Source: Escherichia coli
GTDB taxonomy: Bacteria > Pseudomonadota > Gammaproteobacteria > Enterobacterales > Enterobacteriaceae
DNA: 64,000 nt
Direction: 5' to 3' (one strand)
NCBI RefSeq assembly: GCF_003334315.1
Contig: NZ_QOWR01000003.1
Each line of letters opens with the position of its first letter. Within the stretch, counting starts at the first letter, position 1. The position numbers and the translations under genes are program-made. Positions 1,727 to 33,624 of this stretch are shown piece after piece. The notes beneath the pieces were generated by a model. The model was given only the letters and a program-made list of their open reading frames with translations. It ran no database searches and was not told the origin of the DNA.

Positions 1727-3589
1727 ATGAGTTTTGATATTGCCAAATACCCGACCCTGGCACTGGTCGACTCCACCCAGGAGTTACGACTGTTGCCGAA
1801 AGAGAGTTTACCGAAACTCTGCGACGAACTGCGCCGCTATTTACTCGACAGCGTGAGCCGTTCCAGCGGGCACTTCGCCTCCGGGCTGGGCACGGTCGAA
1901 CTGACCGTGGCGCTGCACTATGTCTACAACACCCCGTTTGACCAATTGATTTGGGATGTGGGGCATCAGGCTTATCCGCATAAAATTTTGACCGGACGCC
2001 GCGACAAAATCGGCACCATCCGTCAGAAAGGCGGTCTGCACCCGTTCCCGTGGCGCGGCGAAAGCGAATATGACGTATTAAGCGTCGGGCATTCATCAAC
2101 CTCCATCAGTGCCGGAATTGGTATTGCGGTTGCTGCCGAGAAAGAAGGCAAAAATCGCCGCACCGTCTGTGTAATCGGCGATGGTGCGATTACCGCAGGC
2201 ATGGCGTTTGAAGCGATGAATCACGCGGGCGATATCCGTCCTGATATGCTGGTGGTTCTCAACGACAATGAAATGTCGATTTCCGAAAATGTCGGCGCGC
2301 TCAACAACCATCTGGCGCAGCTGCTTTCCGGTAAGCTTTACTCTTCACTGCGCGAAGGCGGGAAAAAAGTTTTCTCTGGCGTTCCGCCAATTAAAGAGCT
2401 GCTCAAACGCACCGAAGAACATATTAAAGGCATGGTAGTGCCTGGCACGTTGTTTGAAGAGCTGGGCTTTAACTACATCGGCCCGGTTGACGGTCACGAT
2501 GTGCTGGGGCTTATCACCACGCTTAAGAACATGCGCGACCTGAAAGGCCCGCAGTTCCTGCATATCATGACCAAAAAAGGTCGTGGTTATGAACCGGCAG
2601 AAAAAGACCCAATCACTTTCCACGCCGTGCCTAAATTTGATCCCTCCAGCGGTTGTTTGCCGAAAAGTAGCGGCGGTTTGCCGAGCTATTCAAAAATCTT
2701 TGGCGACTGGTTGTGCGAAACGGCAGCGAAAGACAACAAGCTGATGGCGATTACTCCGGCGATGCGTGAAGGTTCCGGCATGGTCGAGTTTTCACGTAAA
2801 TTCCCGGATCGCTACTTCGACGTGGCAATTGCCGAGCAACACGCGGTGACCTTTGCTGCGGGTCTGGCGATTGGTGGGTACAAACCCATTGTCGCGATTT
2901 ACTCCACTTTCCTGCAACGCGCCTATGATCAGGTGCTGCATGACGTGGCGATTCAAAAGCTTCCGGTCCTGTTCGCCATCGACCGCGCGGGCATTGTTGG
3001 TGCTGACGGTCAAACCCATCAGGGTGCTTTTGATCTCTCTTACCTGCGCTGCATACCGGAAATGGTCATTATGACCCCGAGCGATGAAAACGAATGTCGC
3101 CAGATGCTCTATACCGGCTATCACTATAACGATGGCCCGTCAGCGGTGCGCTACCCGCGTGGCAACGCGGTCGGCGTGGAACTGACGCCGCTGGAAAAAC
3201 TACCAATTGGCAAAGGCATTGTGAAGCGTCGTGGCGAGAAACTGGCGATCCTTAACTTTGGTACGCTGATGCCAGAAGCGGCGAAAGTCGCCGAATCGCT
3301 GAACGCCACGCTGGTCGATATGCGTTTTGTGAAACCGCTTGATGAAGCGTTAATTCTGGAAATGGCCGCCAGCCATGAAGCGCTGGTCACCGTAGAAGAA
3401 AACGCCATTATGGGCGGCGCAGGCAGCGGCGTGAACGAAGTGCTGATGGCCCATCGTAAACCAGTACCCGTGCTGAACATTGGCCTGCCGGACTTCTTTA
3501 TTCCGCAAGGAACTCAGGAAGAAATGCGCGCCGAACTCGGCCTCGATGCCGCTGGTATGGAAGCCAAAATCAAGGCCTGGCTGGCATAA
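1727..3589 (+). CDS. dxs: 1-deoxy-D-xylulose-5-phosphate synthase
   Basis: 620-aa [29 protein letters not shown]...; TPP-binding [18 protein letters not shown] motif. Confidence 0.97.
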
Positions 3590-3593
3590 TCCC

Positions 3594-3766
3594 TACTCCA
3601 CTCCTGCTATGCTTAAGAAATTATTCATAGACTCTAAATAATTCGAGTTGCAGGAAGGCGGCAAACGAGTGAAGCCCCAGGAGCTTACATAAGTAAGTGA
3701 CTGGGGTGAACGAATGCAGCCGCAGCACATGCAACTTGAAGTATGACGAGTATAGCAGGAGTGGCA
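3594..3766. repeat. ERIC/IRU-like intergenic repeat (large imperfect palindrome)
   Basis: Contains AAGCCCCAGGAGCTTACATAAGTAAGTGACTGGGGTGAACG core typical of ERIC; flanked by inverted arms CTACTCCACTCCTGCTAT (3593-3610) and ATAGCAGGAGTGGCAG (3752-3767); lies between dxs stop and yajO start. Confidence 0.7.
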
Positions 3767-3768
3767 GC

Positions 3769-4743
3769 ATGCAATACAACCCCTTAGGAAAAACCGACCT
3801 TCGCGTTTCCCGACTTTGCCTCGGCTGTATGACCTTTGGCGAGCCAGATCGCGGTAATCACGCATGGACACTGCCGGAAGAAAGCAGCCGTCCCATAATT
3901 AAACGTGCACTGGAAGGCGGCATAAATTTCTTTGATACCGCCAACAGTTATTCTGACGGCAGCAGCGAAGAGATCGTCGGTCGCGCACTGCGGGATTTCG
4001 CCCGTCGTGAAGACGTGGTCGTTGCGACCAAAGTGTTCCATCGCGTTGGTGATTTACCGGAAGGATTATCCCGTGCGCAAATTTTGCGCTCTATCGACGA
4101 CAGCCTGCGACGTCTCGGCATGGATTATGTCGATATCCTGCAAATTCATCGCTGGGATTACAACACGCCGATCGAAGAGACGCTGGAAGCCCTCAACGAC
4201 GTGGTAAAAGCCGGGAAAGCGCGTTATATCGGCGCGTCATCAATGCACGCTTCGCAGTTTGCTCAGGCACTGGAACTCCAAAAACAGCACGGCTGGGCGC
4301 AGTTTGTCAGTATGCAGGATCACTACAATCTGATTTATCGTGAAGAAGAGCGCGAGATGCTACCACTGTGTTATCAGGAGGGCGTGGCGGTAATTCCATG
4401 GAGCCCGCTGGCAAGGGGCCGTCTGACGCGTCCGTGGGGAGAAACTACCGCACGACTGGTGTCTGATGAGGTGGGGAAAAATCTCTATAAAGAAAGCGAT
4501 GAAAATGACGCGCAGATCGCAGAGCGGTTAACAGGCGTCAGTGAAGAACTGGGGGCGACACGAGCACAAGTTGCGCTGGCCTGGTTGTTGAATAAACCGG
4601 GCATTGCCGCACCGATTATCGGAACTTCGCGCGAAGAACAGCTTGATGAGCTATTGAACGCGGTGGATATCACTTTGAAGCCGGAACAGATTGCCGAACT
4701 GGAAACGCCGTATAAACCGCATCCTGTCGTAGGATTTAAATAA
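3769..4743 (+). CDS. yajO: Aldo-keto reductase family oxidoreductase YajO
   Basis: ORF track 3697..4743 trimmed to internal ATG at 3769 (MQYNPLGKTDLRVSRLCLGCMTFGEP...), 324 aa; upstream part of track ORF lies inside the ERIC repeat. Confidence 0.9.
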   Translation: MQYNPLGKTDLRVSRLCLGCMTFGEPDRGNHAWTLPEESSRPIIKRALEGGINFFDTANSYSDGSSEEIVGRALRDFARREDVVVATKVFHRVGDLPEGLSRAQILRSIDDSLRRLGMDYVDILQIHRWDYNTPIEETLEALNDVVKAGKARYIGASSMHASQFAQALELQKQHGWAQFVSMQDHYNLIYREEEREMLPLCYQEGVAVIPWSPLARGRLTRPWGETTARLVSDEVGKNLYKESDENDAQIAERLTGVSEELGATRAQVALAWLLNKPGIAAPIIGTSREEQLDELLNAVDITLKPEQIAELETPYKPHPVVGFK

Positions 4744-4751
4744 GAGTCCAG

Positions 4752-4784
4752 GCCTGATGAGACGTGACAAGCGTCACATCAGGC
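4752..4784. repeat. REP-like palindrome between convergent yajO and pgpA (likely bidirectional terminator)
   Basis: GCCTGATGAGACGTGACAAGCGTCACATCAGGC, near-perfect inverted repeat. Confidence 0.5.
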
Positions 4785-4796
4785 ATCGGTGCACAA

Positions 4797-5315
4797 CTAC
4801 GACAGAATACCCAGCGGCCAGTGATGACCGATAAAATACAGGATGCCTGCGGAAATCACCCCGGCGACAATATCGTCGATCATGATCCCCATGCCGCCAT
4901 GCACATTGCGATCAAACCAGCGGATCGGCCACGGCTTCCACATATCCAGAATACGGAAAATCACAAACCCGGCGGCAACCCACTGCCAGTCATTGGTCGG
5001 CAGCGCCATGAGCGTGATCCACATACCAATAAATTCGTCCCAGACAATGCTGCCATGATCGTGCACACCCATGTCTTTCGCCGTTTGATGACAAAGATAG
5101 ACGCCGATACAGATCCCCAGCATCACCACCAGCGAATAGAGCTGCCAGGGCAAAAAGGTCATCAGATACCAGAACGGAATCGCTGCCAGCGATCCCATCG
5201 TCCCAGGAATGATCGGGCTTAATCCACTTCCGAATCCGACAGCAAGCAGATGCCACGGATTACTCATCTTCAGGCGACTTTTCGCGACATCTTTATGGCG
5301 TGGCAAAATGGTCAT
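4797..5315 (-). CDS. pgpA: Phosphatidylglycerophosphatase A
   Basis: 172-aa [34 protein letters not shown]...; membrane protein. Confidence 0.95.
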
Positions 5316-6270
5316 ATCCTTTCCAGTCTAACGTGACAGGTTCGCCGTCACGAACAAAACAGAGTCCTTCTATATCGGCGGTCATTTGCCCGATACAGGT
5401 AAATGGTACGCCCAGATGTCCCAAAGCGACATCCAGCGCGCCACGGTTCAGTTCCGGCACCGTGAAACACAACTCGTAATCTTCGCCACCAGAGAGCGCC
5501 CAGCGCAGCGCCTGTTCCGGTTCAACGTGGCGAGAAAGTGCGTCAGAAAACGGCAGCAATGCCAGGCCAATACGTGCGCCGCAGTCGCTGGCTTTCACGA
5601 TATGCCCGAGATCGGAAATCAAACCGTCAGAGAGATCGATGGCTGAATTTGCCAGATCGCGCAGTGCCTGCCCCTGTAAAATACGCGGCGATGGACGGAG
5701 ATGACGTTTGATCAAGTAGTCCGCATCTTTAGCATCGGCAACCTGCAAACGGTTTTGCAAAATCGCCAGCCCGGCGGCGCTATCGCCCGGTGTACCGGTC
5801 ACATAGATCCAGTCACCCGGTTTCGCCCCAGAGCGCGTTAAGGCTCGTCCCATCGGAACAAAGCCGTGGATACCCAACGTCATTGATAATGGCCCACGCG
5901 TGGTATCGCCGCCAATGAGTTGCATATCGTAATAATTGAGAAGATCAAACAAACTGTCGCTGAAGGACTCAAGCCACGCTTCGTCTACGTCCGGTAAGGT
6001 TAATGCCAGCGTCAGCCAGGCCGGATCGGCCCCCATCGCTGCCAGATCGCTTAGGTTCACCGCCAGTGCTTTATAAGCCAGATCAGCAGGATCGATATCA
6101 GGGAGGAAGTGGTTGCCCGCCACCAGCGTATCAGTGCTGATCGCCAGGGTCTGTTTCTCGGGGATATTGAGAAGAGCGCAATCGTCGCCGATGCCCAGTT
6201 CGACATCAAGACGAGAACTTCTTACACGGTCAAAATAACGGGCAATCAGGGAGAACTCGCCACATGCCAT
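5293..6270 (-). CDS. thiL: Thiamine-monophosphate kinase
   Basis: 325-aa [19 protein letters not shown]...; 3' end overlaps pgpA start by 23 nt. Confidence 0.95.
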
Positions 6271-30633: not shown

Positions 30634-30725
30634 TGCCGGATGCGGCGTGAACGCCTTATCCGCCCTACGCGGTTCTGGCACATTTTGCAGGCCTGATAAG
30701 ACGCGGCAAGCGTCGCATCAGGCAT
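30634..30725. repeat. BIME (REP units) between convergent araJ and mak
   Basis: GCCGGATGCGGCGTGAACGCCTTATCCG... and GGCCTGATAAGACGCGGCAAGCGTCGCATCAGGC. Confidence 0.7.
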
Positions 30726-31781: not shown

Positions 31782-32693
31782 ATGCTGTGGTTCAAAAATT
31801 TAATGGTTTACCGTCTTAGCCGCGAGATTTCGCTGCGTGCAGAAGAGATGGAAAAACAGCTAGCCTCGATGGCATTTACCCCATGCGGCAGCCAGGACAT
31901 GGCGAAGATGGGCTGGGTTCCTCCGATGGGATCGCACAGCGATGCGTTAACGCACGTTGCCAATGGTCAAATTGTTATCTGCGCGCGCAAAGAAGAAAAA
32001 ATCCTCCCGTCTCCGGTGATTAAACAGGCGCTGGAAGCGAAAATCGCCAAACTGGAAGCGGAACAGGCGCGTAAGCTGAAGAAAACCGAAAAAGATTCGC
32101 TGAAAGACGAAGTGCTGCACTCTCTGCTGCCGCGTGCTTTCAGCCGTTTTAGCCAGACAATGATGTGGATCGACACGGTTAACGGTTTGATTATGGTGGA
32201 CTGCGCCAGTGCCAAAAAAGCGGAAGATACGCTGGCATTACTGCGTAAAAGCCTGGGGTCGTTACCGGTTGTACCATTGAGCATGGAAAACCCGATTGAA
32301 CTGACGCTGACCGAATGGGTACGTTCCGGTAGTGCGGCACAGGGCTTCCAGCTGCTTGATGAAGCCGAGCTGAAATCGTTGCTGGAAGATGGCGGCGTGA
32401 TCCGCGCGAAGAAACAAGATCTGACCAGCGAAGAGATCACCAATCACATTGAAGCCGGAAAAGTGGTGACTAAACTGGCGCTCGACTGGCAGCAGCGCAT
32501 TCAGTTTGTGATGTGCGACGATGGTTCGCTCAAGCGTCTGAAGTTCTGCGACGAGCTGCGCGATCAAAACGAAGATATCGACCGTGAAGATTTCGCCCAG
32601 CGTTTTGATGCCGATTTCATCCTGATGACTGGTGAACTGGTAGCGTTAATTCAAAACCTGATTGAAGGATTAGGTGGCGAAGCACAACGTTAA
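31782..32693 (+). CDS. rdgC: Recombination-associated protein RdgC
   Basis: ORF track 31710..32693 trimmed to ATG 31782 ([28 protein letters not shown]...), 303 aa. Confidence 0.93.
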
Positions 32694-32712
32694 TTGCTGA
32701 TTTTCCTTTAAT

Positions 32713-32745
32713 GCCGGATGCGACGCCTGCCGCGTCTTATCCGGC
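32713..32745. repeat. REP element downstream of rdgC
   Basis: GCCGGATGCGACGCCTGCCGCGTCTTATCCGGC. Confidence 0.6.
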
Positions 32746-32850
32746 GTACGAAGCCACACCAGGCATATAATTATTCGCTACGGCGAGCAATAATTTTTAG
32801 CGCAGCAATATTATGCGTTTTACGCTGTAACTTGCTCCATGGACGTTGTG

Positions 32851-33132
32851 TCATTGTTTTTCCTCAAGCCGGTGACGCGCTTCACTGCGAATTTTCCGCG
32901 TTGCCCCGGTTTTCACTAAATCACGTAACAGCGAAAGATCGGGTTGTTCGACAAATAAGAGTAATGATGGATCCTCTTTTAACCACGCCGTTTTCACATC
33001 GGCAGCCAGCTGTGGATTATTAATAGCCAGCGACCGATCCTGAGGCTCAGTCAATGTCGTTAACAACAACGCCGGGGTATGTGCGTTGCGCAATGCCGTT
33101 TGGCGTAAATGATCATTGCGACTTTGCAGCAA
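32851..33132 (-). CDS. Hypothetical small protein at the position of the K-12 ykiA locus (start uncertain, TTG in ORF track)
   Basis: 93-aa ORF between rdgC and ppnP; no recognisable motif; position corresponds to an uncharacterised K-12 gene (from memory). Confidence 0.3.
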   Translation of the reverse strand: MLQSRNDHLRQTALRNAHTPALLLTTLTEPQDRSLAINNPQLAADVKTAWLKEDPSLLLFVEQPDLSLLRDLVKTGATRKIRSEARHRLEEKQ

Positions 33133-33339
33133 TGCACGCCACCATTCATCATCTGATTTATCTTTTATCGTAGCCAGTTCCGCAACAATATCTGGAGATC
33201 TTCACTGATATTTATATCAACCTTGATAAATTATGAATATATCGGAAATTGAAAAAATCGCAGCAAAGGAAATATTATTATGGGTTAAAGAAAGGATATT
33301 TCAGAAAAATGCCCTCCCGTTCAAGGGGAAGGCGAGGAA

Positions 33340-33624
33340 TTACAGATAGCGGCACAGATAAGAGGTGGGTTCGGCAACTTGCAGATGAAACTCACTGTGA
33401 CCGGGAACATTAAACACCGAACCGGCTTCATACACTTGCCAGTCGGTCGCGTCAGGCAGTAACACATTCAGCGCGCCACTGATTACCGTCATCTCTTCCG
33501 GCTCAGCGGTGCTGAAGGTGTATTCGCCTTCAACCATAACACCCACGCTGGCGCGACCAGTGCTGCTGCTGGAAAAGCCGATCGATTTCACTTTGCCGGA
33601 AAAGTACTCATTACTTTGAAGCAT
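33340..33624 (-). CDS. ppnP: Pyrimidine/purine nucleoside phosphorylase PpnP (YaiE)
   Basis: 94-aa [40 protein letters not shown]... Confidence 0.93.

Follow-up and report, generated by a model that had tools for sequence, protein, structure and literature searches.

The 64,000-nt stretch of DNA analysed here (called the window throughout) is part of a K-12-like Escherichia coli chromosome, and its interval 32694-33339 lies between rdgC and ppnP. Located within it are a single repetitive extragenic palindromic (REP) unit, the small gene ykiD, the ykiA pseudogene, an AT-rich region with the ykiA promoter, the ppnP terminator and a plus-strand open reading frame (ORF) of 38 codons (Table 1). 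The sequence at 32600-33450 (851 nt) was 100% identical to strain CP53 and had matches in 5425 of 5426 complete E. coli genomes, and MG1655 differed from the window at 3 of the 851 positions (32641, 33285 and 33436). An initial annotation, made without database searches, had described the interval as poorly characterised and the coding status of its two ORFs as uncertain, an assessment that was correct; it had missed ykiD, the ppnP terminator, the published ykiA promoter and the origin of the interval. Overall, we conclude with considerable confidence that what lies between rdgC and ppnP is left over from a two-gene cassette of low GC content that decayed through two deletions, in which YkiD is a relic and the 38-codon ORF is a frame that is open by chance.

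The cassette was found undeleted in other strains. In O157:H7-type genomes, the same site carries an intact, overlapping pair of minus-strand genes encoding a 759-amino-acid (aa) "DUF2773 domain-containing protein" and a 149-aa "SF0329 family protein". The pair was also intact in strain PT62 and, as an allele of 90% identity, in another E. coli assembly, where the SF0329 protein has 151 aa. When the window was compared by BLAST with the O157-type locus (FORC_044, L003; DUF2773 gene at 3125-5404), three collinear blocks were obtained with two deletions between them. The sequence at 33198-33450 was 96.8% identical to the upstream region of the intact O157 gene and ppnP, which identifies the AT-rich DNA as the cassette's own 5' untranslated region (UTR) and promoter region. 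The GC content of the cassette was 42-45%, compared to 51-52% for rdgC and ppnP, which is consistent with a foreign origin, and the cassette was probably acquired horizontally.

Deletion 1 affected the SF0329 gene, which lost 372 nt (124 codons) in frame between the imperfect repeats AGTTACAGCG and AGTTACGGCG. The 151-aa SF0329 protein of Shigella and E. coli reads MTQRPWSKLQR-E...QLQR-KTHNIAALKIIARRSE and YkiD reads MTQRPWSKLQRKTHNIAALKIIARRSE; YkiD is therefore an in-frame fusion of residues 1-11 with residues 136-151 of that protein. Two features of the parental gene have been kept, namely its Shine-Dalgarno sequence (GAGGA, located 6-7 nt from the ATG) and its ATGA overlap with the stop codon of the preceding frame. 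YkiD gave no NCBIfam hit and is far shorter than the roughly 150 residues of the SF0329 family (NF049912 / PF25753), whose invariant positions span 7-149 and fall mostly in the part deleted from YkiD, and we regard it as descended from the family but not as a structural member of it. Through deletion 2, the DUF2773 gene lost its start codon together with about 646 codons. At the scar of this deletion, the 5' UTR stops 3 nt short of the lost ATG, and CTCCAGATATTGTTGCG and then codon ~647 come next; the placement of CTCCAGATATTGTTGCG between these two segments makes the ykiA remnant a three-piece mosaic. What is left of the gene is the end of the predicted alpha-solenoid, the C-terminal 15% of the 759-aa product, without a start codon of its own, so that neither a complete ORF nor the N-terminal signal, beta-rich and solenoid parts of a functional DUF2773 protein are present.

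The 93-aa minus-strand ORF with a TTG start that the initial annotation had rightly placed at an uncharacterised K-12 gene was recovered at 32851-33132, inside ykiA, and corresponds to the UniProt entry "Putative pseudogene: putative uncharacterized protein YkiA". Its description as free of motifs did not hold, as this stretch is what Pfam DUF2773 models. The Pfam model (PF10971, 81 positions) matched only residues 679-759 of the 759-aa protein (E = 1.5e-39), the part that is retained in the window, suggesting that the "domain" was evidently defined on the K-12 pseudogene fragment and is not a structural unit.

The AT-rich stretch had been estimated at 200 bp; it is present but covers about 150 bp, with a GC content of 0.26-0.31 over approximately 33150-33300 versus about 0.51 in the flanks. 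Salscheider et al. 2014 (PMC3950696) report that the ppnP-ykiA spacer drives lacZ, that the transcription start was mapped by rapid amplification of cDNA 5' ends (5'-RACE), and that BglJ-RcsB activates the ykiA promoter via a site whose centre lies 79 bp upstream of where transcription begins, as supported by mutagenesis of the site. Our promoter scan gave candidate -10 boxes (CATAAT) on the minus strand at 33282-33277 and 33235-33230. The ppnP terminator hairpin had a predicted folding energy of -15 kcal/mol (z = -2.6), and 1 of its 29 sites was variable among 12 sequences.

A chromosomally SPA-tagged YkiD has been seen by immunoblot (VanOrsdel et al. 2018, Table 1; PMC6001520), which makes ykiD the only ORF of the interval with direct protein evidence, and a retapamulin initiation signal was listed for it in BL21 (Table S4 of the 2024 preprint by Fesenko et al.; PMC11188072). 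Our literature search found no functional data for YkiD. Taken together, K-12 and most E. coli descend from a lineage that underwent two deletions: one took the start and ~646 codons from the DUF2773 gene, leaving the ykiA pseudogene, and the other, in frame and 372 nt long between 10-nt repeats, collapsed the SF0329 gene into the 27-codon ykiD. The upstream region of the cassette with its BglJ-RcsB-activated promoter and the ribosome-binding site of the SF0329 gene survived, and for this reason the relic is still transcribed and YkiD still made at a detectable level.

Table 1 Features of the rdgC-ppnP interval and its flanks (positions in the window).
Feature	Position	Strand	Basis and remarks
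rdgC coding sequence (CDS)	31782..32693	+	RefSeq annotation transferred from strain CP53 (100% identical); left flank, outside the decayed cassette
Single REP unit	32711..32752	.	Core palindrome 32713-32745; between convergent rdgC and ykiD
ykiD (b4732)	32771..32854	-	27 aa, MTQRPWSKLQRKTHNIAALKIIARRSE; annotation in CP53 and MG1655; ATG overlaps the ykiA stop (ATGA)
Scar of deletion 1	32823..32832	-	10-nt microhomology AGTTACAGCG (coding strand), far-end partner AGTTACGGCG; overlapping BLAST segments against L003 and junction sequences
ykiA pseudogene (b0392)	32851..33192	-	RefSeq/K-12 annotation 'incomplete; missing N-terminus'; last 113 codons of the 759-codon DUF2773 gene
Scar of deletion 2	33181..33198	-	17-18 nt CTCCAGATATTGTTGCG, identical to codons ~357-362 of the intact gene
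AT-rich upstream region (26% GC), 5' UTR and ykiA promoter	33199..33310	-	Identity to the O157 upstream region, literature, promoter scan
38-codon ORF (plus stop)	33233..33349	+	ORF list; 10-nt overlap with the stop-codon end of ppnP
ppnP intrinsic terminator	33301..33333	-	Hairpin 33333-33311, GCCTTCCC-CTTGAAC-GGGAGGGC, then T-tract ATTTTTCTGA; terminator scan
ppnP (yaiE) CDS	33340..33624	-	ORF list and annotation; right flank

The distribution of the alleles was assessed in the 5426 complete E. coli genomes. At a coverage of at least 80%, the K-12-type interval was present in 4542 genomes (~84%) and the whole cassette in 444, and a full-length SF0329 gene was present in 921. The 5' junction of deletion 2 was common to all K-12-type genomes examined and to a form with SF0329 only (L004), which has lost the rest of ykiA and kept a full-length but frameshifted SF0329 gene. 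In strain CUWW10 (L005, 2672-3653), a copy of the insertion sequence IS1X2 immediately follows ykiD and joins it to iraP/phoA, which has the look of a deletion or rearrangement mediated by IS1, with the loss of ykiA, ppnP and genes next to them. A further allele was found in Escherichia sp. E4930 (GCA_004745115.1), in which the 759-aa DUF2773 gene is intact and its stop codon overlaps (ATGA) with a mini-ORF of 21 codons that comes after it, MRLRRKTHNIAALKIIIRRSE (L007, 7277-7342). Judged from its sequence, this mini-ORF is an independent in-frame collapse of an SF0329 gene, with a different junction and the same C-terminal tail as K-12 YkiD. A transitional form consisting of the ykiA remnant and a full-length SF0329 gene was also sought; the counts allow for a few dozen such genomes, but the one candidate inspected (H86) turned out to carry a fully intact cassette, and we make no claim for this form.

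Substitutions were counted for ykiA, ykiD and ppnP in nine divergent K-12-type genomes. The ykiA frame had 17 synonymous and 34 non-synonymous changes, giving a crude ratio of non-synonymous to synonymous substitution rates (dN/dS) of 0.62, and ykiD had 3 synonymous and 7 non-synonymous changes (crude dN/dS 0.64), compared to 6 synonymous and 1 non-synonymous changes (crude dN/dS 0.05) in the last 68 codons of ppnP. The pattern in ykiA and ykiD fits relaxed constraint, and the 93-aa ORF, for which the initial annotation had proposed conservation and dN/dS as a check, is on this evidence not a gene of its own. The variants of YkiD comprised R11H, T13K, L19Q, K20N/R and R25C, and in three genomes the stop codon came one codon earlier. 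In the same nine genomes, about 15% of the sites of the ykiA remnant were variable, versus about 1% at the end of rdgC and about 3% at the end of ppnP, and variation at synonymous sites was also higher in the remnant (17 of 80 sites) than in the flanks (6 of 48 and 1 of 40). Relaxed selection may account for this high diversity, combined with recombination at the locus or with the presence of old allelic lineages there.

Several observations weigh against an interpretation of the two relics as mere debris. The ykiA frame was open in all nine K-12-type genomes sampled, in which the only insertions or deletions were an in-frame 3-nt deletion and a 1-nt insertion at the extreme 5' edge, and the K-12-type allele prevails among the complete genomes, as given above. 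A crude dN/dS of 0.6-0.8 is below 1, so that weak constraint may exist, and Fesenko et al. (PMC11188072) report a dN of 0 for the YkiD cluster. The collapse in E4930, which occurred independently and in frame and keeps the tail RRKTHNIAALKII.RRSE, could hint at selection. Moreover, the substitution counts come from about a dozen genomes picked for their divergence and disregard phylogeny, so that they are indicative only. One explanation that would take up these points is that the relics are functional, either as a YkiD microprotein (approximately the last SF0329 helix) or as a YkiA solenoid fragment whose translation would begin internally, for instance with the TTG at 33132; the detection of YkiD in rich medium, in the table of PMC6001520 cited above, and the retention of the inducible promoter, as described for the reporter in PMC3950696, would agree with it. 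We consider this unlikely. The dN/dS values of the relics (0.62-0.64) are far from that of ppnP in the same genomes, YkiD varies in sequence and in the position of its stop, and it lacks 124 of the 151 residues of the parent, including nearly all invariant positions of the family. The ykiA frame has no ATG and no conserved start, and other lineages have lost it wholly (L004) or, via IS1, everything beyond ykiD (L005). The probability of encountering no stop codon over the 51 ykiA substitutions is approximately 0.07, so that the absence of stops is not significant, and retention of the frame has a prior of one in three for each deletion event. The published dN of 0, as opposed to the 7 non-synonymous changes counted here, is likely caused by the construction of the Fesenko cluster on protein similarity.

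A related and similarly improbable proposal goes further. In each of the two in-frame collapses of SF0329 (K-12 type and E4930), the start codon, the ribosome-binding site and the same C-terminal helix (KTHNIAALKII.RRSE) persist under a promoter that BglJ-RcsB can induce, so that the helix might have been retained as a functional microprotein, and SF0329 might represent an immunity-type family of polymorphic toxin systems that has gone unrecognised, is highly conserved across phyla and is losing its E. coli copy. With regard to its second part, eight genomic contexts of SF0329 homologues were inspected. In about half of them, the homologue lay in a same-strand array of small genes, among them members of known immunity families (Imm10, a DarG-like macro domain, SUKH-3 and SMI1_KNR4/SUKH_6), in some cases beside an integrase. 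Such arrays were seen in L018, L021/L022 and L025 and not in L019, L024 or E. coli, and other homologues adjoin housekeeping genes or an island with bacteriophage exclusion (BREX) and TerB genes, contexts that are uninformative. The neighbours in the arrays hint at a role in interbacterial immunity, which we take as a lead and not as a demonstration.

The 38-codon ORF is the remaining coding candidate of the interval, and in our interpretation it is not a gene but a frame left open by chance within DNA that serves as promoter and terminator. The initial annotation had correctly seen a plus-strand ORF here, although it gave the length as 37 aa (the peptide that it listed has 38 letters). The ORF is antisense to the ykiA promoter and the ppnP terminator and passes through both, and its codons 27-34 (ALPFKGKA) are the complement of the terminator hairpin. 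The AT-rich DNA, in which stop codons on the plus strand are few, favours such a frame, and its 3' third is fixed by the hairpin on the other strand. An alternative explanation is that the ORF codes for a real small protein and is expressed in antisense orientation to the ykiA promoter, for example via read-through from rdgC or from a local promoter. The frame is open in 13 of the 13 E. coli sequences examined, which speaks against a chance frame, and it is called as a "hypothetical protein" in some older E. coli annotations. It has also been catalogued by Fesenko et al. (NC_000913.3, 408454-408568, minus strand; cluster Escherichia_59708, 1845 members; Table S4 in PMC11188072), with 31 elongating-ribosome reads in MG1655 that cover 86% of it. 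These footprints are few, and the initiation-site columns (RET/Onc112) of the same entry are empty. No Shine-Dalgarno-like motif was found in the 20 nt before its ATG, and the sole plus-strand promoter-like match lies inside the ORF.

The substitution pattern also makes a genuine small protein very improbable. In 11 diverse E. coli, we counted 3 synonymous and 10 non-synonymous changes (21 and 93 sites, respectively; crude dN/dS 0.77), and the published values are a dN of 0.0436, a dS of 0.0413 and a dN/dS of 1.057 (PMC11188072), so that the conservation check suggested with the initial annotation indicated neutral evolution for this ORF as well. The published table gives neither purifying selection nor initiation signals for a bona fide small protein. 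The replacements were radical (S4P, A10P/E, V18G, K19Y, I22T, K25I and G32R); in addition, MG1655 has V18A (33285 T/C, with V in the window) and another allele K31M. Variable sites were more frequent in the body of the ORF (12 of 78) than in the adjoining ppnP CDS (3 of 86). In Escherichia sp. E4930, the nearest outgroup with the locus (87% identity), the frame is interrupted by a stop at codon 20 and a frame-shifting indel. The ORF is not called outside E. coli, no homologues were found there, and no family match was obtained with NCBIfam, PHROGs or PADLOC. Neither ORF of the initial annotation is present in the supplement of Stringer et al.

Finally, the short K-12 form could be ancestral, with O157-type strains having gained DNA by insertion into small genes, which would suit its far greater frequency (4542 versus 444-921 genomes), but the conservation of SF0329 at full length throughout its family (the 151-aa protein has 55-83% identity to aligned homologues from several other bacterial phyla) in effect already refutes this. 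Also against it are the completeness and coherence of the long genes (the 759-aa product has a signal sequence and an uninterrupted repeat architecture), the match of YkiD to only the two ends of SF0329, the junctions with deletion-type microhomology and a mosaic scar, and the full-length DUF2773 gene at the same site in E4930 and in the divergent 90%-identity E. coli allele.

The products of the intact cassette were characterised by structure prediction and homology searches. An AlphaFold model of the 759-aa protein (pLDDT 71 and pTM 0.34, from a shallow alignment) places a hydrophobic helix that carries an A-x-A site at the N-terminus; a domain rich in beta structure follows at about 65-176, and the chain from about 240 onwards forms an alpha-solenoid that extends to the end. 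According to this model, the protein would have a signal-peptide-like N-terminus, a secreted appearance and a HEAT/ARM-like alpha-solenoid. A Foldseek search with the model returned only generic HEAT/ARM solenoids with template modelling (TM) scores of 0.2-0.3. Among 5.8 billion proteins, the full-length DUF2773 family formed 6 clusters, of which the named ones were from Escherichia, and the protein is thus nearly restricted to this genus. The best full-length homologue that is not Escherichia-like, and the only distant one found, had 49% identity and lies at a different locus (L006, 5001-7241, Logan assembly SRR28530750), with sprT/endA/rsmE on one side and a major facilitator superfamily (MFS) transporter and metK on the other. 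No SF0329 gene is adjacent to it, so that linkage of the two cassette genes is not obligatory. In the cassette, we regard the SF0329 gene as translationally coupled to the DUF2773 gene. When the two intact proteins, YkiD, the ykiA fragment and the 38-aa ORF were scanned against NCBIfam, PHROGs and PADLOC, the hit of SF0329 to its own family model was the only one. A sequence search of the Protein Data Bank (PDB) with SF0329 gave no significant match, and no relevant papers came up in a literature search on SF0329, DUF2773 and their Pfam accessions.

On the rdgC side of ykiD, the REP element claimed by the initial annotation was confirmed. It is an imperfect palindrome with an inverted repeat of 14-nt arms (GCCGGATGCGACGC / GCGTCTTATCCGGC) in an extragenic position between the stop codons of rdgC (32693) and ykiD (32771). 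The consensus pattern gave 1 match with 0 expected by chance, and a looser pattern gave 4 copies in the window versus 0 expected. Its RNA fold had an energy of -29.3 kcal/mol (z = -5), and a scan of the interval with Rfam gave a single hit, below threshold, to naRNA4, a family derived from REP sequences. The unit has a 42-nt match to the REP of the araJ-mak spacer, and it is also kept downstream of the intact cassette in O157 (L003). Other copies with the REP consensus lie at 30638-30661, 61731-61754 and 61831-61854, one of them being that of the araJ-mak spacer; the two copies near 61.8 kb are 100 nt apart and may be a pair of the type found in bacterial interspersed mosaic elements (BIMEs).

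Much of the interval was known beforehand, and most of it is non-coding: the REP element, the ykiA pseudogene and ykiD were annotated, the ykiA promoter and YkiD were published, and the 38-codon ORF was already catalogued. The recognition of YkiD as a deletion product of SF0329 and of the ykiA scar as a mosaic is new, as neither was found in the searchable literature. YkiD is a "validated" small protein and yet a deletion relic, and its case illustrates that detection of a tagged product need not imply a dedicated small-protein gene. Similarly, the boundary of the Pfam DUF2773 "domain" is that of a K-12 pseudogene fragment. The intact cassette pairs a protein that is predicted to be a secreted-looking solenoid with SF0329, a member of a family that is highly conserved across phyla. 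For genome biology in general, these findings carry little weight.

Compared to known systems, the locus resembles the DUF2773/SF0329 pair of O157:H7-type strains (e.g., WP_120795310.1 and WP_001303823.1) in its site between ppnP and rdgC, its upstream region, its 3' end and its REP. Like E. coli REP elements in general, the unit described here has the consensus palindrome GCCGGATGCG...CGTCTTATCCGGC, an extragenic position between convergent genes and several copies in the window, and it differs from them in being one unit without a BIME-type cluster. The 38-codon ORF does not differ from the neutrally evolving small ORFs of Enterobacteriaceae (PMC11188072), as it is itself an entry of that catalogue. 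Orphan immunity-gene arrays of polymorphic toxin systems (SUKH, Imm10 and comparable families, in interbacterial-defence islands linked to integrases) are similar in that SF0329 homologues occur in such arrays in other phyla; the difference is that this is an association only and that the partner in E. coli is a solenoid protein without a recognisable toxin domain. The closest counterparts are ykiA and ykiD of K-12 itself, which have the same positions, strand, lengths, ATGA overlap and YkiD peptide, with 3 single-nucleotide differences over 851 nt and none that is structural; what is added to them here is the origin of ykiD by deletion and the mosaic nature of ykiA.

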